Positions 7,437-61,000 of a DNA stretch of 64,000 nucleotides are shown here, piece after piece. Both the position numbers and the translations under genes were made by a program. Origin of the DNA: Octopus vulgaris (Eukaryota); assembly GCA_951406725.2 (NCBI GenBank), contig OX597819.1, positions 40,734,001 to 40,798,000 of the forward strand, given 5' to 3'. Under the pieces are notes generated by a model. That model worked only from the letters and a program-made list of their open reading frames with translations. It was not told where the DNA came from and did not search any database. Position 1 is the first letter of the stretch, and each line of letters starts with the position of its first letter.

Positions 7437-9380
7437 GAAATTAGTTGAGGTGCAGCTTCAGAAAATTTTTAGCTGTTTAATATTTAATATTGTGTAAAAG
7501 GAAACAAACATATAAAAAGAAAATTTATACATAAACTTCATTGGTTTGCATTTTAGCCACTGCTGGGTAGTGTGTTTAATTTGTTCCCTGAACACTGTCA
7601 TGAATTCCCCCTTGTTTTTCAAAAATCCCCCCTAAATCACAAAATAAGTGGAGGAAATGTGTCCTATTTTTTAAATCCTAGCAGCAACATTGAAGCTGGA
7701 AGCATGACAATAATCTAATTCTACACTTTACCCCATTCATCATCATCATCATCATCATTGTTTAACGTCCGCTTTCCATGCTAGCATGGTTTGGACGATT
7801 TGACTGAGGTCTAGCGAACCAGATGGCTGCACCAGACTCCAATTTGATCTGGCAGAGTTTCTACAGCTGGATGCCCTTCCTAATGCCAACCACTCCAAGA
7901 GTGCAGTGGGTGCTTTTACATGCCACTGGCACGAGGGCCAGTCAGGTGGTACTGGCAATGGCCACGCTCAAATGGTGTTTTTTATGTGCCACCTGCACAG
8001 GAGCCAGTCCAGTGGCACTGGCAATGACCTTCCTCGAATGTTTTTTCACATGCCACCAGCACAAGTGCTAGTAAGGTGACGCAGGTAACGATAACACTTG
8101 AATGGTGCTTTTTATGTGCCGTCGGCACGGAGGCCAGCTTGTTGCTCTGGCAACAATTACGCTCGTATGGTACTCTTAGCACTCCACTAGCACAGATGCC
8201 ATCAAGAATATAAATTCACTGAACACCATAGCAAATTCCCCCTTGTTTTTCAAAAACCCCCACTAAATCACAAAATAAGTGGGGAAAATGTGCTCTATTT
8301 TTTAAATCCTAGCAGCAACACTGAAGCTAGAAGCAGGATAATAATCTAATTCTACACTTTATCCTATTCAAGAATATAAACATGTTTTTAAGCACAACAC
8401 ATGCAGAATCAAAAAGAAACACTACCTTTCTGAATTTGAATGTTATCAGGATCGATAACGTAAGTTACTTTCATAGCATTTACCAATTACTTGGGATTTT
8501 AAATATGCAGCCTAATGATTTTTCTATTTAAATTCAACTCAACATATCAGTGAAAACAGGTGCCCTACCCAAGAGTAAATAACAGAAAGTTGTTTTTATA
8601 GTAAAAATGTGTCATTTATGACAATATTTATTTAGAAAGTGAGATAAGTAAACAGTTTGACCCAAACACTGTATGTATACTTATCTCTTCACTATACTTC
8701 CCACCAGTGGCAGCTCATGTATAGGAACTGCGGAACTGCAGCATCCCCTATTTCCACTCAATATTATCAATAAAATTCAATATAATGAGTCCTGTTTTCT
8801 TTAATTCTTTCTTTATACTTGTACATTATATAATCCTTAAGCTTAATGTCAGTAGCCATCTCCTAGTTTGTGAAAACAATACAAAAATCCTTGTATAGAA
8901 CCGCGTGCTTCACAGTTCCAGTGATGCGGCGTTTGGCTGTTGTGCACATGTTCACATGTCCGAGATAGGAAGCTTCACACTAGGGAGAGAGAGCACTGCA
9001 TGGACAACAGTGCTAGGTGAAAAGTGGTGTTTCTTTTTGTCTCCGCATGTGTTGTGCTTAAAAACATGTTTATATTCTTGAAGGTGATAAAGTGTAGAAT
9101 TAGATTATTATCCTACTTTCAGCTTCAGTGTTGCTGCCAGGATTTGAAAAATAGGGCACATTTCTCCCCACTTATTTTTGTGATTTAGGGGGTATTTTTG
9201 AAAAAGATGGGGGAGTTTGTGGCAGTGTACAGTGAACAAATTAAACACACTATCCAGCAGTGGCTAAAATGCAAACCAATGAAGTTTATGTATAAATTTT
9301 CTTTTTATATGTTTGTTTCCTTGTACACAATATTAAAACAATGGCTAAAAATTTTCTGAAGCAGCACCCCACTAATTTTC
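7437..9380. mobile_element. Long-TIR (fold-back) non-autonomous DNA element with nested insertion
   Basis: 7437-7740 plus 8215-8407 are inverted relative to 9040-9380; part of the left arm (about 155 bp) is directly duplicated around an RTE-tail insertion. Confidence 0.75.
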
Positions 9381-21200: not shown

Positions 21201-22933
21201 CCTTATATTCCCTAAATTCCCTCCCCCAACTCCCTTATATTTTTTTCTTTTTTCCTTTTAATCCTTATCTCTCTCTACATTTATTTTCTCCTCTCCGACA
21301 GTGCTCTGATTGAATCTTCCGCGTGTTAATATGTACCTCCTTGTGACAATGTAAACTTTCATTTAATCAAGATATCCTTGGATACCACTTCTGAGGTTCC
21401 ACTTGCTATGAAACATATGTAGTCCGGATCTTATCTACTCCATTCCTTAACTCTTGTATTCTTACTTGCATACCCAGCAACCCTGGTCGCCTACTGTGAA
21501 ATATAAAAAGTATTTCTTTCAGTTTATCATACTTCAATACATAAAAAATCCACAACCTTCCGGCTCAGTAAACCACTATTGTCCCTGAAAGTTGTTTTTT
21601 ATATTTACTATGCTATTTTCTATTCAAATTCCTACCAACAACCAACAATCAAGCATACAACAGTCACTGTACATCTCTCAGACACTATCACTCCTACTAC
21701 CACCCATCTTTCTTGCTTTCCACCACTTACTCTCTCATAGCGTGACACATCTTTATTACTATCTGATCAAACTGCTTATCCTGTTTTTCTATTCAATCTT
21801 TTATCAACTACCAACAACCAATATACAGTTATCCCTGTGTCTCTTCCATTACCCCATCTCTGACCATCTCATTGCATGCTTACTCTCTCCTCTATCACTG
21901 TGTTGGTCATCACTTTCTTTCTCAGGTTTTAAAAGAACTGAGACAATGTATAATAGGAAGGACTCCTAAGTTTCACAAGGAACAAAACAACCTCCCTTAT
22001 GTAGGTCTCATGATAGAATGTACCCAGTACACTCTGTAAAATGGCAGTTGGCATTTGACCTGAGATTATGTAGGAAAATGAGTATTCTTTAGTTGTGTCA
22101 AGGACATGGCAACCTCTCAAGTGCTGGTGCCACAAGAAAATACCCTCAGTATATTTTGCAAAATGGTTGACATTAAGAAGGGCATCTGGCCATAGGAATC
22201 CTGTTTAAAATGGAATGTACAAGTGATATGTTGTCCCCCAACTTGTCTATGAGGGTAGTAATTCCAAATAAGAACTTGGACTGTGGCAATTCACCCTATT
22301 TAAGTCAACATAAAAAAACAGGCAAATATGATGATGATGGTAAATACATACATATGTACACATATACAGCAATAAACAGGGGGTTTAAAATCCAGACAGA
22401 TACTTTATAGGCACTCTGTTGTAATCCAAACTTAGCTAATTATATTGATCAGTAGAAAAACACAGGGAACCTTACAGTGCATACAGTTACAGTTGTATTC
22501 TTGTTCAATTAGTAAATCTAAAGTTTACTTCCAAGAATTATTTCATATATTTACAAACATAAAATCAGAAGAAAGAGAAAAGAAAATGTAAAATCGATAG
22601 TATTTTGTTTTATTAGCTGAGGAAATCCATAGGAGTTCCTCAAGGGCTGACAGTTTCGTTCCAAATTATTTGATATGTGCTTTTGCCATGTAGTCTAGGA
22701 CCCCTACTCTTGTAACTGTCTTTAGCTAATATATTATAAAATTACACGTACACATTCAAAGATGTAATTAGAGGTGAAATAAAGGTGAAAAACTGATGTT
22801 GAAGGGGGTCGTAATGATAGAAAAAATATTGGATTCCTCGTGTTGCACAAACAGCTCCGCGTGTTAGTGTGTGTGTGTGTGTGTTTGTGTGTGTGTGTGA
22901 GAGAGAGAGAGAGAATAAATATTCTTAAAATAC

Positions 22934-23295
22934 CTTCCTTGCTCGAGTACAACCACATCACTCCATCCTCGTTGACTGAGATGGTAGGCAACAGACAAGC
23001 CGACAACACCGCCGCCACAGATGACCACCCTGGCTTGATCGGGAACCTGTACTGTAGATGAACTGGACGCCGTTGATGTTGATGACTGTGCTGATGATGG
23101 GGATAATGACGATGACGATGATGGAGATAACAAGGATGAAGACGAAAAACATCGAGTGAGTCCATGAACACAGCGTCTGCTCTGAGCTCCAGTAATATTG
23201 CCGGTGAAAATCAATGAGGAGTAACACGTTTTCCTTTTTAAACAAGCGTAACGTAGTTTCCGTAGAGTGGGTTGGACGAGTTTAAAGGGTTTCAT
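22934..23295 (-). CDS. PDPR: Coding exon 1 of a pyruvate dehydrogenase phosphatase regulatory subunit-like protein (FAD-dependent DAO/GcvT family)
   Basis: Arg/Lys-rich, acid-free N-terminus (mitochondrial presequence-like), a Ser-rich linker, then [37 protein letters not shown] (GxGxxG FAD Rossmann motif). Ends at donor AG|gtattt, phase 2 (362 nt). VVICGGG and LEQGR fit PDPR better than SARDH/DMGDH. Confidence 0.85.
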
Positions 23296-23926
23296 ATTGA
23301 CAACTGTATTATTACCAATAAACTGTTGCTTACAGTTATGAGAGCCAACAAGAAAATCACTTTAAACAGCGTTGTCTGGAACGACGTTCTTTAATCAACA
23401 ACCAAATCGTTTTTTTTTACGCGACAATTATTGGATAATTTATCATAAGTATTTTACATAATTCTTAAATATATTTATATATATTTTTGGAATTGATATT
23501 CATTTTACTTGTAATTAGTTAGCGACTATTTACTCCTTACAGACCGCAATAGGATGTACCCGAGAACTTGTTTATGTTAATATCATGTGATAATAATAAC
23601 AGAAATCGTTGATTATACCCAGCCAAAATATTTCACAAATAAATTCATAGGAATACTTCGTTAAATATTGAAGTGGAATAGTAAATAGCAAAGCAATCCA
23701 AGCGGTTCCAAATTAAAAAAATATATATAGGAATGTTTTCTTATAGTGAAAACTTCCAGATGATATTTCTCTATAACTGATCCTGTTTCTCTGTTTACTT
23801 AAAGGACATCGCCTTAGTTCACTTGTAGTTTCACTCTACTGGTTGTTATTGTTGTGTATTTTGCTTTTTATACTGGTGCCTCGTCTCGTGCTTAAATGCT
23901 GTCCTATCACAGCTGTTGTTGTGGTT

Positions 23927-28323: not shown

Positions 28324-28604
28324 CACGCGTCCTCATAAAGAGGCCACGTCCCCATAAAGAGGCCACGGTCCTCATAAAGAGGCCACGGTCCCCATAAAGA
28401 GGCCACAGTCCTCATAAAGAGGCCACGCGTCCTCATAAAGAGGCCACGGTCCTCATAAAGAGGCCACGGTCCCCATAAAGAGGTCACGGTCCTCATAAAG
28501 AGGCCACGGTCCCCATAAAGAGGCCACGGTCCTCATAAAGAGGCCACGCGTCCTCATAAAGAGGCCACGGTCCTCATAAAGAGGCCACGGTCCTCATAAA
28601 GAGG
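28324..28604. repeat. Minisatellite, about 20-bp unit x14
   Basis: Unit gtcc(t/c)cataaagaggccacg, with occasional 1-bp length variants. Confidence 0.95.
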
Positions 28605-28919
28605 TAAATAACTCCATTATAAAGAGGTAGACAAGTTTAATATAAAAGGCAAAAACAGTAAAATCTAGCTGTAGAGAGGAATGTCACTTGTTTCTACTAT
28701 ACGAGTGTTCTAGGTTGTCTACCAGGAGTCGAAAATAATGATATTATAAAAACCTTTATGCGATGTTTCACTCAGTATTAAACCCTGGACACAAATTCCA
28801 CACTTAGCCATCCATTCACCCATCCATCCATCCATCCATCCATCCATCCATCCATTCATCCATCCATCCGTCCGTCCGTCCGTCTGTCCGTTCGTCCGTC
28901 CGTCCTTCATCTCTGTCCA

Positions 28920-30686: not shown

Positions 30687-30746
<60 letters not shown>

Positions 30747-30832
30747 TAAATGGATGAATGAATTATCCTTTATTTACCGTTAGCAGTCATCGTTATTGTT
30801 ATAATGTCTTGTTGTTGAGATAGGCTCTCTTT

Positions 30833-30914
30833 CTTTCCTGATGAGAAGATTGCATTTTACACCGTTTATTCCTTTGGAATAAAACCATGTTGTCTTCGAA
30901 ACATATGTCGAAAG
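30833..30914 (+). ncRNA. Type I hammerhead ribozyme, canonical core
   Basis: ctttc-CTGATGA-gaaga...tcttc-GAAA-C-ATAT-GTC-gaaag: perfect stems I and II, palindromic stem III ACATATGT, GUC site at 30907-30909. Confidence 0.85.
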
Positions 30915-30952
30915 TAAAAGAATTTTAATAACATCTTCGTTCCATTTATTTA

Positions 30953-31019
<67 letters not shown>

Positions 31020-31579: not shown

Positions 31580-31619
<40 letters not shown>

Positions 31620-31647
31620 GAGAAAGAAGCAACAAGAATGGATTAGT

Positions 31648-31738
31648 TTTTAGTACAATTGTTTCATACAAAGACAGGCTTTATTAAAAGTTGCAAATAT
31701 TGCAGCAGATAAAAGTGTCCCGTACTCATCAGCTAAAA
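31648..31738 (-). ncRNA. Type I hammerhead ribozyme in the left arm of the inverted repeat
   Basis: Reverse-complement copy of 32327-32426 with a shorter loop II. Confidence 0.7.
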
Positions 31739-32326
31739 CACATATGAGTTCTCCAAACATCTTAGTGGGTGAGGCTATACTCATGAAGTAAATTTCATTA
31801 AAAGCAGATTTAGGTTGTAAACCGACTTCCGAAGTTCTTTAATGATGATGCACAGTCTTATCACATTTTTTAAAAAAAGCTTATTAGCTTCACAGAGAAG
31901 GTGAATTAATCCGTAGTGTAGATGTAAATTTCCAGAGATATGAGGAGGAATTTTTGTGGAGCAAAAAAAATTCCTTCAGCCTTTAGAAGTCATAACATAG
32001 CAGTCTTGTGAAGAGAACAGTAATGTGACAAATACCTTATCATATAGCATGAAATTATACCCACCTCATTGTGGATTAACCATGGATAAATTCATCGTCT
32101 GTGAGTATGAAATTCCTCCTCATATCTCTGGAAATTTACATCTACACTACGGATTAATTCACCTTCTCTGTGAAGCTAATAAGCTTTTTTTTAAAAACCT
32201 GTGATAAGACTGTGCATCATCATTAAAGAACTTCGGAAGTCGGTTTACAACCTAAATCTGCTTTTAATGAAATTTACTTCATGAGTATAGCCTCACCCAC
32301 TAAGATGTTTGGAGAACTCATATGTG

Positions 32327-32426
32327 TTTAGCTGATGAGTACGGGACACTTTATCTGACACAATATCTGCTGCAATATTTGCAACTTTTAATAAAGCCTG
32401 TCTTTGTATGAAACAATTGTACTAAA
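32327..32426 (+). ncRNA. Type I hammerhead ribozyme in the right arm of an inverted repeat
   Basis: tttag-CTGATGA-gtacgggaca...tgtctttgtat-GAAA-C-AATT-GTA-ctaaa; GUA triplet; extended stem II with G-U pairs. Confidence 0.7.
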
Positions 32427-32567
32427 AACTAATCCATTCTTGTTGCTTCTTTCTCGTTTATAATCACCCCACATTACTGTATGGTTAACACCATATAGTT
32501 TTCTGGTGCATCTAAGTTAAGTACCGCATTCAAGTAAATTCATTAGAATTGACTTGAATCTTAATTG

Positions 32568-32614
<47 letters not shown>

Positions 32615-39520: not shown

Positions 39521-40540
39521 CGCAGTCGGTTACCTGGTTTCCATGGCGTATATATAGCCAAGAAAAGAACATTCTCTTTGAACGGGGCGCCAGTCCGTCA
39601 CAAGAGTGAACTACAGCAACGTGAAATGAAGTATTTTGCTCAAGAACTCAAAACACTGTCTGGTCCGGTGTTCGCGAGAGCAAAATCATAGCCTCTAGGC
39701 CATGCACATTCACTAGAATGCAGGGACTATTGTCCGAAAATCGGAATGTTTGGGCTCTCTACTTCTGATCAAAGACATTTAATATGTGACTATCTTTGTT
39801 GAGATTCATTTTTGAATTTTACGTTTTACATATTCAGAGTTTTATCTTATGTCCAAGGTTTTGTTAGATCGTGTATGCATCGTTGTTTGTCAGGTTATTT
39901 AATATCACTTCAATATCATTTGCTTAGCTGCTTTGTGTGTATCACTTTAATATCGTCTGCTTAGTTGCTTTGTGCGAACGATAGTAGAATATTTGGTCTG
40001 TGTGTAAGGCGGCGAGCTGGCAAAAACATTAGCACGCTGAGCAAAATGCTTAGCGATATTTCGTCTGTCGCTACGTTCTGAGTTCAAATTCCGCCGAGGT
40101 CGACTTTGCCCTTTCATCCTTTCGGGGTCGATTAAATAAGTACCAGTTACGCACTGGGGTCAATGCAATCGACTATTTCCGTTTGTTTGTCCTTCTTTGT
40201 CCTCTCTGTGTTTAGCCCCTTGTAGGTAGTAAAGAAATAGGTATTTCGTCTGTCGTTACGTTCTGAGTTCAAATTCCGCTGAGGTTGACTTTGACTTTCA
40301 TCCTTTCGGGGTCGATAAGTACCAGTTACGTACTGGGGCCGATGTAATCGACTTAACCCGTTTGTCTGTCCTTGTTTGCCCTCTCTGTGTTTAGCCCATT
40401 GTGGGCAGTAAAGAAGTAAGAATCGTTAACACGTCGAGCAAAATACCTTTCGTCTGCCTTCATGCTCTGATTCAATTTGGTCTGAGTTTGACTTTGCCTT
40501 TTATCCTTTCAAGGTCGATGGAACACCCTTTCAGAATTCA

Positions 40541-48175: not shown

Positions 48176-48217
<42 letters not shown>

Positions 48218-48476
48218 ACGGTGTCGAGCCTTTCTGGTGACGTCGATGTTCGCCTGGGGCTAAATGCAACAGTAACACCCCCACCACCCTGCCCTGTCCC
48301 TAGCCATATTCAGATGGCTTTAGTCCCTTATGTTATCGAGCAGTTACTGTCTATATCCCTTTTAGAGAATTATTATTGCTTTCGAACAGATTTTCGAAAT
48401 CAGCAAATGTATTTTGCTTGAAAATCTATATAAGAAAATCCTGCAGAGAGAGAATTCGTCGAGGAAGCGGAGGCCT

Positions 48477-48528
48477 ACCACACGCCGATGATAGGCAATA
48501 CACCTTGAAACCATGGTCCGTGTGTGGT
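48477..48528 (+). ncRNA. Type I hammerhead ribozyme (variant core), array unit 1
   Basis: Stem I acacg/cgtgt, core CCGATGA, stem II t-agg-caataca-cct-t, GAAA, palindromic stem III ACCATGGT, GUC triplet at 48516-48518. Confidence 0.75.
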
Positions 48529-48836
48529 TTCCGCTTCATCGGGGAATTACCTCCCTTTGCAGGTTAAGGGCACCGTGACGGTGTCGAGCCTTTCTGGTGA
48601 CGTCGATGTTCGCCTGGGGCTAAATGCAACAGTAACACCCCCACCACCCTGCCCTGTCCCTAGCCATATTCAGATGGCTTTAGTCCCTTATGTTATCGAG
48701 CAGTTACTGTCTATATCCCTTTTAGAGAATTATTATTGCTTTCGAACAGATTTTCGAAATCAGCAAATGTATTTTGCTTGAAAATCTATATAAGAAAATC
48801 CTGCAGAGAGAGAATTCGTCGAGGAAGCGGAGGCCT

Positions 48837-48888
48837 ACCACACGCCGATGATAGGCAATACACCTTGAAACCATGGTCCGTGTGTGGT
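48837..48888 (+). ncRNA. Type I hammerhead ribozyme (variant core), array unit 2
   Basis: Identical to unit 1; predicted cleavage after 48878. Confidence 0.75.
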
Positions 48889-49175
48889 TTCCACTTCATC
48901 GGGGAATTACCTCCCTTTGCAGGTTAAGGGCACCGTGACGGTGTCGAGCCTTTCTGGTGACGTCGATGTTCGCCTGGGGCTAAATGCAACAGTAACACCC
49001 CCACCACCCTGCCCTGTCCCTAGCCATATTCAGATGGCTTTAGTCCCTTATGTTATATATATATATATATATATATAACGGGAAGCTTTATGAAAATAAA
49101 CAAAAGACGAAGGCAGGTGGAGTATAAACAAACAATTGTATTAGTATGGCGCTCAGGAATATAAATAAAACAAGT

Positions 49176-49896: not shown

Positions 49897-50174
49897 GTCT
49901 GTCTGTCTATCTATCTATCGTCAAGCAATGCATGTGATAGCATATAACTGGCCAGAATGTTACCGCCAGTTCACATCGAATATTGCCACTAGATAATGTT
50001 GACGACTTTTCAGACTTTCTGGCCGGAAGTGCATGTCCTCTTTTATGCTAGCGGTATATACACTGTACGTTGTGACAAAACTGGAACGAAGCATAGTGAA
50101 AAATACATTTTGGGAGAAGAGTTCTTCTCCATAATTTGGTGATAGCCATGGGTGGTGGAGCGTGTAAACTATGC

Positions 50175-50232
<58 letters not shown>

Positions 50233-52356: not shown

Positions 52357-52875
52357 TATATATCCATATCTACAGCTATATCTATATCTATATCTATATC
52401 TATATTTATATCTATGTCTATATATATATATATATATATATGATTTTAAATTTTAGTTAAAATCTATTCTCATCTTCGTTAATTTCTTCAGTGTAGTAAG
52501 TGATATACTGTAAAGAATTGAACTAAAGGAAAGAGAATAAAGAATTGAGCGGTAATGCTGATAGTCAACAGGTGTTTTCTGTTTATTAGATTATGCCTTT
52601 AGTTCTGATACACTTTCACCTCAATAAACTATTCTTCCAGTTATGTGAGAATCAATGCAGAGACTTAAAAAACTACAAAAGCGCCATTGCTCATTGGACA
52701 ATTTAAACCTAGCACTACAAATGGCCCAATTGTTAGCCCTGTATAACTAGCTTTTATTTAGAAAAAGAAATCACCCTCGCATTATTGTTGCTTCGGAGTG
52801 TTTACTTTTGTATGCAGCGCAAAATCGAAAATATGAATAGAATTGCTTTACATCTTAACTCTTTGAAGTTTTTAA

Positions 52876-52935
<60 letters not shown>

Positions 52936-57424: not shown

Positions 57425-57479
<55 letters not shown>

Positions 57480-57970
57480 TAAATGGCCATTTATCTATTT
57501 ATCTATTTATCTATTTATCTATTTATTCCCTCCACCTAACAAACCGCCTACCTCTTCTTGACCACCAAAAAGCAATTGTCTTCTAATTTACCAAAAAACC
57601 CCATCCCATATATCTGTTGAATTTCTATTCATTTATTCTATTTATTCATTTATTTATTTTCTTACTGATTCTTCTCATTCCAAAAATGCTCTGGCCTTTT
57701 GACCACTCCCCTAAGAGCAATAGCCTGTGACCTGTTTATCTCCTAAATACCAACCTACCCAAAAAACGTCCCCCCTGCCACCACCACTCCATTAAATCTG
57801 CCTAAATGAATAAATACCAGAACTTATTTTGATAGCCAGCTTCCTGAAGATTTCATCTGAATGAAACAGTTCTAGTCCTGTAGAAGCTCCTTCTATAAAA
57901 TAAATTAATTTACTCTGCTATGTACTGAGTACCTTATTTACTGTGGTTTACCCCGACTCAACCCGGGACC

Positions 57971-58020
<50 letters not shown>

Positions 58021-58025
<5 letters not shown>

Positions 58026-61000
58026 GTGGGCACCGTTAATCGAAAGCTAACTTCGTTAAGGATTAACTTGTTATCCAAAAGGTTAACTTCGTTAAGCCCT
58101 TAATTCTTTGAAAGTGTAACGGAAGTTAATGCTAATCCGTTAACGTTAACATGTAGTGAAAAGGCATAACTAATACCCCACCAACTTCGTTGCCTTATAA
58201 CTTCCAGAAAAATTGACACCGTTTAACAAACTTTTACCAAATAATCGCTTATATCCTGTAGATTGAGTGTAAGTAAAAATTTGTTAGAAATTTTTTTCCG
58301 AGGGGTTAGGGAGACGAGTTTCAGAAAATTCACATGACTCGACATTTCCCACCTCATATTTTCTGGAAAATAGGAATTTGTATATGAAATTCTATACAAA
58401 TACCTTTTAAACGATGTAGATTACTATTATAAAGAAATTTATAGGAAAATTCTTTGGAAGGGGGAGAGATGGAGGAGTTTCTGGAAAACAGATTTTCGGA
58501 CCAGACGGCCTACATAAGTTGAAATGTCTCCGTTTTGAAGGGGAATTTTTCCAATGTTTTTCACCAAAGTCTTCAGAATGATGGGAGACACCTTTTCACG
58601 AAAAACAGAAAAAAAAAATTTTTTTCACTCCCGCCGCCCCTTCACTATCCCAGTTCGAAACGAGTTTGGCCATTTATTTTTCACTATGCACTTAAAACCG
58701 GTGAAACATTTTCAGTTTTAAAAAATTGCCAATAATTTCAGAGGAAAATGTGTGATTTAAGGGATATCTGGCTGTTATTTCTAGCACATCTCAAAACCTC
58801 CCTCCTTGTTTCTTTCTCACTCACACATCTATTGATATTTTTCAATATTTTTCTCACCATAAACAAATTTTATGGAATGATGATGTCAAATTGACACACG
58901 TGTAGTCCCAACCGATCGAGGCCGTGTTATGTGTGTATGTGTAAGAAAAAAAACACACACCTAAACACATCTTTAGTGTTCATATTAATCTGTCAAATGT
59001 AATGCTTATTTGTTCACGTTATTTTGAATTATTCAGGTTTAAGAGGCATGTCCACAATATTTGCTTGTAACTTTGTAAATTTTTTACATACAGATTTGAA
59101 ATTTTGTCAGTGGGTGCTTTATATACCACTGGTTTATTGTTATGTAAATTTAGCTGATCCTGCTGAGTAAATTTGACTTTTATGGGCAGGTAAATTTAAT
59201 TAACAGGTGTAACAGCAATAACATTATGGATAAACACTAAAATTGAAATTCTAAATGCATCTTACCTGTTTGATTTGTTACTAAAATTCAACTGACAAAA
59301 ATGTTGCCACTTTTCAAGATGAGGTACATTAATTTGAATTATTTAAAAAAAAAAAGCAGTTATAATCGGTACAAGATTTTATTCTTTCGGTAAATATTTC
59401 GTACCTCGGTGTGGAATAATTTTTTTCATAGTTTTTTTCGGGTGCATTCAACGTATCTGACCTCCAAATCTGCCGCAAGCCACTTTTTTCCAGAAAAGAA
59501 AGGTAGGAAGGGTGGTGGGGACCTCTAAGTTTCCCACCGAGGGAGTATTGTTTCGCGGGTCTTTTTCTTTTCCAGGTTATTTTGCATGCTTTCAACGAAT
59601 GTGATACCAAGCGTAAACGGCTCCTTTTTCCAGAAAAAGAAAGATTTAGCTGCTATTTCTAGCGTACCCTGCTACCACGTAACAGCTATTTGCGTTCACA
59701 CCGAAATATTTACCAACTTTTTTCCTTCCATTTACTTTTTCCACTTTGTGGAAGTCAATATTTTCTCTGTTGACATCCATCTCATTTAATTTTGCGTTTC
59801 TCCCGGTTCTGAGCTTTCTGGAAGAAAAGCCTTCACATTATCTCAAAGCTACGAAATTTTACTAACGTGATTTGTTTATTTTCTAAAAGATTTCGTAGAG
59901 GAATTAGATACAACAGGTTTTGGCCGGTTTAAACACTATAGGGTTAAAAAGTGCCATAACTATAAAGTCAGCTTTTTTAGCCTTTTTGAGGGCCTTAGAA
60001 CCCCAAAACTATAAATGCTGACTTTATAGTTTTAAATTTCAAAGGGGCTATAAAATGCTGATTTCATAGTTTTGGCATTTTTTAAAGATTTTTAAAGGCT
60101 TTTAGAGCCAGAAAAGGGTAAAAAAAACTCAAATGAAATACAATATTGTATTATTGATAAAGTGGCCGTAAAAAAAAAAAAAAATTTTTTAAATGATATT
60201 CTTTTACTCTTTTTACTCTTTTACATGTTTCAGTCATTTGATTGTGGCCATGCTAGAGCACTGCTTTTAGCCCCAGGACTTATTCTTTGTAAGCCTAGTA
60301 CTTATTCTATCGGTCTCTTTTGCCGAACCGGTAAGTTACGGGGACATAAACACACCAGCATCGGTTGTCAAGCGATGTTGGAAGGGGGGGGGGCGGACAA
60401 ACACAGACACACAAGTACATATATATATACATATATACGACTGGCTTCTTTCAGTTTCCGTCTACCAAATCCACTCACAAGGCTTTGGTCGGCCCGAGGC
60501 TTTGTACAAGACACTTGCCCAAGGTGCCACGCAGTGGGACTGAACCCGGAAGCATGGGGTTCGTAAGCAAGCTACTTACCACACAGCCACTCCTACGCCT
60601 ATATATACATAATTTAATTTTTCCTCTTCTTCTCATCCATTTTGTTGATGAGATTCATGTTGACCTTCACGAAAATTAACATACTAAAATTTTCATCAGA
60701 CAAGGACGATCTCATGGCACTCAAGATGTCCTTGCCCAGGGAAAATAAACGCTCAGCTGCAGCACTGGGAAAGATGTTGAACTTGAACAAGACCACCAAC
60801 ACTTGCTCACCCAAGAAGACAGCAGCCAGTTGGCATTCCTCATCGTCCAGGAGGGTCGCAAATCTTTTGTCGATGCCTTCCAAAACTGCATTGACCAAAG
60901 GGATGCAGTAGACGAGTTTTGAGCTAGCGGAGTTGTGTTAACGGAAGCTAAATGTAACGGAAGTTAATTAGTCCGATAATGATTTTCAAAGTTAACTTAA

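Follow-up and report, generated by a model that had tools for sequence, protein, structure and literature searches.

The 207-bp insert at positions 30749-30955 of the window, by which we mean the whole 64,000-nt stretch of Octopus vulgaris DNA analysed, is best read as the 5'-truncated pLTR end of a high-copy EN+ Penelope-like element (PLE) family that targets (TA)n, and we put the probability of this reading at about 75%. So read, the insert is a PLE stump, an unexceptional product of a known class. A solo Penelope pseudo-LTR had been proposed in the first-pass annotation, and the proposal holds up as the best reading: the insert belongs to a dispersed high-copy family, has (TA)n flanks and a palindromic mini stem III, shows variable junctions and opposite-strand joints among its copies, and has a PLE-shaped neighbour 660 bp away. 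The PLE link itself is likely rather than proven. Pfam detected no PLE reverse transcriptase (RT) or GIY-YIG domain among 145 ORFs of the window, a set of 144 from the 151 longest non-repetitive stop-to-stop frames to which one 53-aa frame of the neighbour was added. PLEs account for 6.83% of the O. vulgaris assembly and fall into 190 families, according to excerpts of the supplement to PMC13282606.

The insertion lies inside (TA)n, as in (TA)n-targeting PLEs, and the flanking tracts noted from the start were recovered as (TA)25 at 30689-30738 and (TA)28 at 30957-31012, the left and right parts of the inferred target; a target site duplication is unreadable inside (TA)n. A TA-like linker (30739-30748) makes the left boundary ambiguous between 30739 and 30749. 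The estimate of about 210 bp for a single mini-element was correct in size (207 bp), but the insert consists of two parts and its left boundary is ambiguous. The right part is a 173-nt plus-strand arm (30783-30955), the hammerhead-bearing end and putative pLTR stump, which ends 46 nt past the predicted cut site; near 30941, other copies have about 4-5 nt that this arm is missing. The left part is a 34-nt segment (30749-30782), apparently in minus orientation, that forms a separate high-copy family module; other copies diverge behind 30782 and before 30783, leaving loose ends at both points. The left segment is, at somewhat better than even odds, an inverted and truncated 'tail' arm; that it is instead the true 5' end left by internal deletion of a longer copy we place somewhat below even odds. 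The tail so inferred would be at least 64 nt long, versus the usual 30-40 bp.

It is very unlikely that the two parts are unrelated insertions into one TA tract, of which only 30783-30955 belongs to the hammerhead family. The TA tracts here are crowded with inserts, and the 14-mer at 30740-30753 recurs once in the window (shuffle mean, 0.11), at 57473-57486, so that the same word opens two unrelated hammerhead inserts at their left edges; but no TA repeat separates 30749-30782 from 30783-30955, and four other contigs join the same modules at different points. The word AATGG occurs within 16 nt of 3 of 72 TA-tract edges, all three being ends of these two inserts. The 14-mer and AATGG at insert ends are possibly a shared priming signal.

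The plus-strand motif at 30833-30914 is a type I hammerhead with intact core boxes and an open helix I. Its CUGANGA, GAAA and UH boxes are all in place, and three helices surround the core. Stem I consists of 5 Watson-Crick pairs between 30833-30837 and 30910-30914, with a pair probability of 0.86-0.88 locally and 0.53 within the 207-nt RNA. The core boxes CUGAUGA (C3-A9; 30838-30844) and GAAA (G12-A15.1; 30898-30901) are separated by a branched stem II of 53 nt (30845-30897), composed of 6 bp, 4 bp, an internal loop and an 8-bp hairpin, with pair probabilities of 0.66-0.99. At its base, 30845-30849 pair with 30893-30897 (5 Watson-Crick pairs, plus U-G 30850/30892); beyond the U-G lie a 1x1 mismatch and 4 pairs (30852-30855 with 30887-30890), and the inner 8-bp hairpin (30865-30883) is closed by a UUU loop. 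The structure thus contains both the 5-bp stems I and II and the long loop II with its own hairpin that had been recognized at first sight. The GUC triplet occupies 30907-30909, with the predicted cut after 30909. It overlaps the 8-nt palindrome ACAUAUGU (30901-30908), which had been called a palindromic stem III; the palindrome is present, but in the monomer it yields a stem III of only 2 bp with a tetraloop, and in a dimer it would form an 8-bp intermolecular stem III. A small palindromic helix III is described for pLTR hammerheads of EN+ PLEs (Cervera and De la Pena 2014, PMC4209133; reportedly also Lunse et al. 2017).

With a strict hammerhead descriptor, the window yielded 3 motifs, whereas 100 shuffled windows (block-wise shuffles, dinucleotide content preserved approximately) yielded none, confirming the claim of an intact conserved core (CUGAUGA, GAAA, GUC). 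The folding energy of the whole element was unremarkable (z -1.33), and that of the 95-nt core gave z -1.99. An Rfam search of the whole window at the gathering threshold returned no matches, hence no hammerhead, and a local Rfam search at E<=10 returned 24 matches without a hammerhead, the best being microRNA families on TA repeats. The only unusual trait of the hammerhead is the 53-nt spacer between the catalytic boxes, and the Rfam miss is probably due to this 53-nt stem II. A loose long-stem-II pattern matched at least 120 metagenome stretches and gave 39 viral matches; among the 159 matches listed, both stems reached at least 3 bp in 4 and at least 5 bp in none, and BLASTN of the listed matches against two window elements gave no hits. 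These metagenome and viral matches were therefore dismissed as chance rather than kin. A family-specific pattern had no matches in metagenome contigs. Six-frame reading of 30749-30955 revealed no ORF, the ATG in the CUGAUGA box opening 14 codons before a stop, and a sigma-70 scan, a model irrelevant to this host, stayed at chance level.

We then considered whether the RNA is predicted to cleave itself. In the best monomer fold, the core box is paired with the palindrome; stem III had a pair probability of 0.01-0.02, and the active monomer fold accounted for 21-41 of 5000 sampled structures (<1%). The unconstrained homodimer MFE was a double hammerhead (-37.0 vs 2 x -14.8 kcal/mol), with both stems I and II formed and a shared 8-bp stem III, and the palindrome duplex came to -7.0 kcal/mol in models that leave out tertiary contacts and magnesium. 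These predictions suggest that efficient self-cleavage probably takes place only when the RNA is paired with a second copy. No same-family partner exists within the 64-kb window. A heterodimer with the neighbour's hammerhead was rejected, because the heteroduplex of the two palindromes is too weak (only -1.2 kcal/mol). The ranking of this motif above all others in the window as a candidate for active self-cleavage is accordingly unsupported; moreover, it overlooked two equally intact cores 0.7-1.5 kb downstream. By analogy, some monomer cleavage of the solo copy is possible, because monomers with a 2-bp stem III cleave in coral and, to a weak extent, in axolotl: excerpts of PMC7229834 report fast cleavage of coral retrozyme monomers, 22% cleavage in an hour for an axolotl motif whose stem III has 2 bp, and cleavage of mussel retrozyme monomers too. 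For a minimal PLE hammerhead, single motifs gave no cleavage and dimers low cleavage (PMC4209133, partial text), and the PAc ribozyme required protein (PMC11167929, partial text). The solo copy at 30749-30955 probably has little activity and is a passive by-product.

To analyze the copy family, contigs from 4 of 24 listed public runs were aligned to 30749-30955 at 80% likeness. Three large runs with three organism labels gave 1466 (X1), 1507 (X2) and 1136 (X3) aligned contigs, and a fourth run, X14, only guessed to be RNA, gave 181, which were not counted as evidence of expression; most of the aligned contigs were 90-99% alike. Single-locus contigs had depths in the tens and summed depth reached 10^4-10^5 and more, a ratio of 2,400-26,000 that is not a copy number and is inflated by overlapping contigs. 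The family probably has a copy number in the thousands. Contig depth peaked over the two catalytic halves and dropped in the flanks, where the loose ends are diverged subfamilies. The 3' end of the family is common to the copies and, in short contigs, enters TA-rich sequence.

Seven joints were listed among these contigs, each in one contig with sides of 21-42 nt at 80% likeness, and joints of this kind often arise from repeats. Four of the seven connect the left segment to the right part, each at a different point: 30769 to 30812, 30772 to 30856, 30777 to 30890, where 15 letters prolong the left segment, and 30782 to 30783, where letters of unknown identity intervene. Two, at 30822/30887 and 30839/30901, are opposite-strand (head-to-head) joints with 42-nt sides, each in one contig; a head-to-head copy is not visible within 30749-30955 itself. 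The remaining joint skips from 30863 to 30905 inside the ribozyme, indicating that internal deletion is real in the family. Two further replacements were listed, their kind not given.

These joints bear on the suggestion of a monomeric retrozyme, the other origin put forward in the first-pass annotation. A non-LTR retrozyme would normally be tandem, self-cleaving, circularised and reinserted by a PLE enzyme, and the insert would be a solo copy. Its small size and low GC content (31%) fit this, and it resembles metazoan non-LTR retrozymes in being short, non-coding and AT-rich, with a type I motif; a 2-bp stem III with a tetraloop also occurs in invertebrate retrozymes, of which coral and mussel monomers cleave (PMC7229834, partial text). 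Monomer derivatives are common and metazoan retrozymes are related to pLTRs, according to excerpts of bioRxiv 10.64898/2026.07.22.740005, and the window also contains a retrozyme-like 360-bp array. However, none of the 7 listed joints goes back to an earlier position in head-to-tail fashion (short contigs would miss units well over 207 nt), the insert is a single copy in the window, inverted joints were seen in the family but tandem ones were not, and its two parts run on into different sequence in other copies. Canonical hammerheads have a helix II of 4 bp (PMC4209133, partial text), unlike the long branched stem II here; the insert lacks a canonical short helix II for loop-loop contact, and the canonical helix I/II loop-loop geometry is absent, with a 53-nt stem II and a distal stem I broken by common variants. 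A retrozyme origin is therefore unlikely.

A (TA)n-targeting, MITE-like DNA transposon with variable internal deletions, which had captured a PLE hammerhead, would account for several of the same observations. The insert ends share a 9-nt inverted match (30746-30754 vs 30941-30949), both ends recur together with varied internal junctions, internal skips occur, and the summed depth of the two ends is similar in 2 of 3 runs. By contrast, 6 nt separate the right inverted match from the insert end, the head-to-head joints together with the conserved RNA catalytic core point to an RNA intermediate, and the neighbouring family has PLE anatomy, so we consider this origin distinctly improbable.

The family contigs also revealed how the ribozyme varies. 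Twenty variable positions were listed, and for 15 of them variation reached >=3% in two or all three of the large runs. By this threshold, core plus stem II positions within 30833-30914 varied at 0/23 compared with 11/59 others (Fisher p=0.020), for a position set picked after the table had been seen; for the core alone, a set that leaves out N7 and the cut base, the comparison was not significant (0/15 vs 11/67, p=0.09). The CUGAUGA box had no substitution at >=3% among the family contigs, and the cut-base variant C30909T was present at 18% in X1 and 2% in X2 and X3. Pairing was kept in several one-sided changes: A30911G and A30912G create U-G wobbles in stem I, A30881G leaves a wobble in the hairpin, and T30890C converts G-U to G-C in stem II. 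With a share of 6% in two of the runs, G30892T disrupts the final wobble pair of stem II, and A30905G (7-33%) introduces G-U pairs into the palindrome. T30821G and T30926G, at 33-67%, break the distal stem I extension, and the extended distal stem I of the MFE was rejected for this reason. Covariation in stems among copies, to which the first reading had looked as a check, did not appear; the unphased variant table contained no two-sided change, only one-sided ones that keep wobble pairing. Separately, the common variants within 30859-30912 include five that are A>G when read on the strand of the ribozyme, three of these lying in stems, and three T>C, numbers too small for any claim of editing-derived changes.

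A PLE origin is favored by the layout of the nearest neighbour, a 953-bp insert between (TA)n tracts at 31619-32571 that is built of inverted and direct arms plus a 115-nt tail. The inverted arm (31619-31953) is about 95% identical to 32110-32456 of the direct-arm portion (31954-32571). Its hammerheads, at 31648-31738 (minus strand) and 32327-32426 (plus strand), are intact, with a stem II of 60 and 71 nt, respectively, and the palindrome ACAAUUGU. The neighbour is a different family with a different sequence and the same long-stem-II hammerhead type, and by analogy it displays the full layout described for EN+ PLE insertions. Excerpts of PMC8557442 and PMC3846280 describe such insertions as 5'-truncated and targeted to (TA)n, with an inverted copy next to them and in some cases a tail; for PAc, two internal RT start sites create the tail in vitro (PMC11167929, partial text), and PLE hammerheads have a palindromic mini helix III and depend on dimers (PMC4209133, partial text). 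The hammerhead at 30833-30914, with its minimal palindromic helix III near the element end, conforms to what is expected of a PLE pLTR.

If the insert arose in this manner, a PLE RT/GIY-YIG protein made elsewhere would have cut the (TA)n tract, and reverse transcription would have been primed at two internal RNA sites. For the right arm, the cDNA would start about 46 nt past the cut site and stop after 173 nt; for the left arm, it would start at the end of the downstream 'tail' and stop after 34 nt, in inverted orientation. The ribozyme would be under selection in master elements. There, two copies, either tandem pLTRs or two RNAs, would pair via the 8-nt palindrome into the double hammerhead, possibly with the assistance of a protein. 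Thousands of short two-armed insertions would make both RT start sites mappable from genome sequence alone, and would allow the tail model of PMC11167929 to be tested in the same way.

The hammerhead resembles known PLE pLTR hammerheads (PMC4209133, partial text) in being type I, with a 5-bp helix I, a larger helix II, G10.1-C11.1 and a palindromic helix III suited to dimers. It differs from them in its 53-nt branched spacer and in having no extra nucleotide between A9 and G10.1. The same excerpts describe pLTR hammerheads as mostly solo, with some opposite-strand pairs 100-700 bp apart. The insert shares a (TA)n target, an unreadable target site duplication and an apparent 5' truncation with the Hydra, Naiad and Neptune PLE clades (including Hydra-1_Obim, Naiad_Obim and Naiad_Ovul), in which the inverted arm and the putative tail also have counterparts, and a hammerhead near the 3' end with the Hydra clade (PMC8557442, partial text). 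Unlike ours, the Hydra loop 2 is 3-10 nt in the available part of PMC8557442 File S2; for an animal PLE, a stem II of such length is unusual, though spike mosses provide a precedent. As parents, Hydra-1_Obim, Naiad_Obim and Naiad_Ovul were rejected by eye on differences in their hammerhead or 3' regions, Naiad_Ovul having only a 9-nt terminal word in common with the family, as far as excerpts of PMC8557442 go. A long stem-loop II between intact boxes is also present in the spike-moss elements PLE-X1_sMoe and PLE-X1_sTam, with 9 bp and a loop of about 35 nt in PLE-X1_sMoe (PMC8557442 File S2, partial text); the likeness is one of layout, and these elements differ in being from plants, EN-minus and targeted to 28S rDNA. 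Poseidon_Ac (PAc; PMC11167929, partial text) serves as a model for AT-rich target cutting, two RT starts and a protein-assisted hammerhead. It differs in that its ORF starts at stem II, where the octopus ATG gives 14 codons.

Searches of openly accessible papers turned up no published description of this family. Four 12-13-nt family motifs had no matches in the available part of the PMC8557442 supplement, where line breaks may hide some, and five had none in the 5,371 characters available from the PMC13282606 supplement, the TE library being separate on Zenodo. For octopus hammerheads, just PMC8557442 surfaced in the openly accessible literature, in partial text.

Within the window alone, four hammerhead families lie inside TA tracts, and two unrelated ones have a long branched stem II and are missed by Rfam. 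Long-stem-II hammerheads escape both Rfam and short-spacer descriptors, so PLE ribozyme counts in such genomes are maybe too low; a published survey, in the part available, counted 235 Rfam hammerheads in giant squid. Excerpts of PMC8557442 report Naiads as lacking canonical hammerheads and mark half cores with 35-50-nt spacers in eight of them. It is conceivable, though doubtful, that hammerheads with a stem II of 50-70 nt form an overlooked class of thousands, maybe a (TA)n PLE lineage scored as hammerhead-less. If so, the element protein could dock on the stem II arm and in this way gate cleavage, and a single UCCAUUUAU signal may serve both RT start sites.

The remaining two hammerhead families are of other types. 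The 2.3 x 360-bp retrozyme-like tandem between TA tracts (48216-49056) contains two hammerhead-like motifs on one strand, their cores lying at 48485 and 48845. In these motifs the core shows a U4C change, stem I has 6 bp, stem II is weak and the palindrome is strong (-11.2 kcal/mol); the tandem is predicted to be able to dimerise in cis. As had been stated, the insert is unrelated to this array: BLASTN gave no hits, and the plus-strand score did not exceed chance, with 64 of 200 shuffles scoring as well. On the minus strand, one 32-column AT-rich patch beat 200 mononucleotide shuffles and was taken as chance. The insert of about 490 bp between TA tracts at 57482-57974 opens with a 16-bp palindrome and has a fourth hammerhead-like motif near 57840-57888, with a Hydra-clade-like layout, a CUGAAGA core, a U before GAAA and a 4-bp stem III; its MFE lacks a hammerhead fold.

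Finally, we asked what the surrounding locus contains. The microsatellite load and SINE-like repeats of the window resemble those of an Octopus genome. The only clear part of a host gene is the minus-strand frame at 22867-23361, which combines a Ser-rich leader with a FAD-binding motif (Pfam DAO, E 9.9e-11) and resembles, by its sequence, the initial coding exon of a gene for a mitochondrial oxidoreductase. Recruitment of the ribozyme by the host, to act on a host transcript at this locus, would agree with the intact core and with the presence of this exon (FAD-oxidoreductase, DAO family) about 7.5 kb away. Yet the exon is on the opposite strand and seems to be the first coding one, which would place the insert upstream, and a young high-copy family explains the intact core, so host recruitment is extremely improbable. 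Elsewhere in the window, a weak hAT dimerisation-domain match (60617-60937, minus strand; E 0.0012, below the cut-off) is likely a transposon remnant. Two stretches of 260-440 bp between microsatellites, at 52441-52879 and 49920-50178, were empty in hammerhead scans. The window also contains a 20-bp minisatellite of about 14 copies (28324-28605), 66-bp tandem units at two places (2694-2939 and 7909-8063) and a 179-bp SINE-like dimer (40057-40415).
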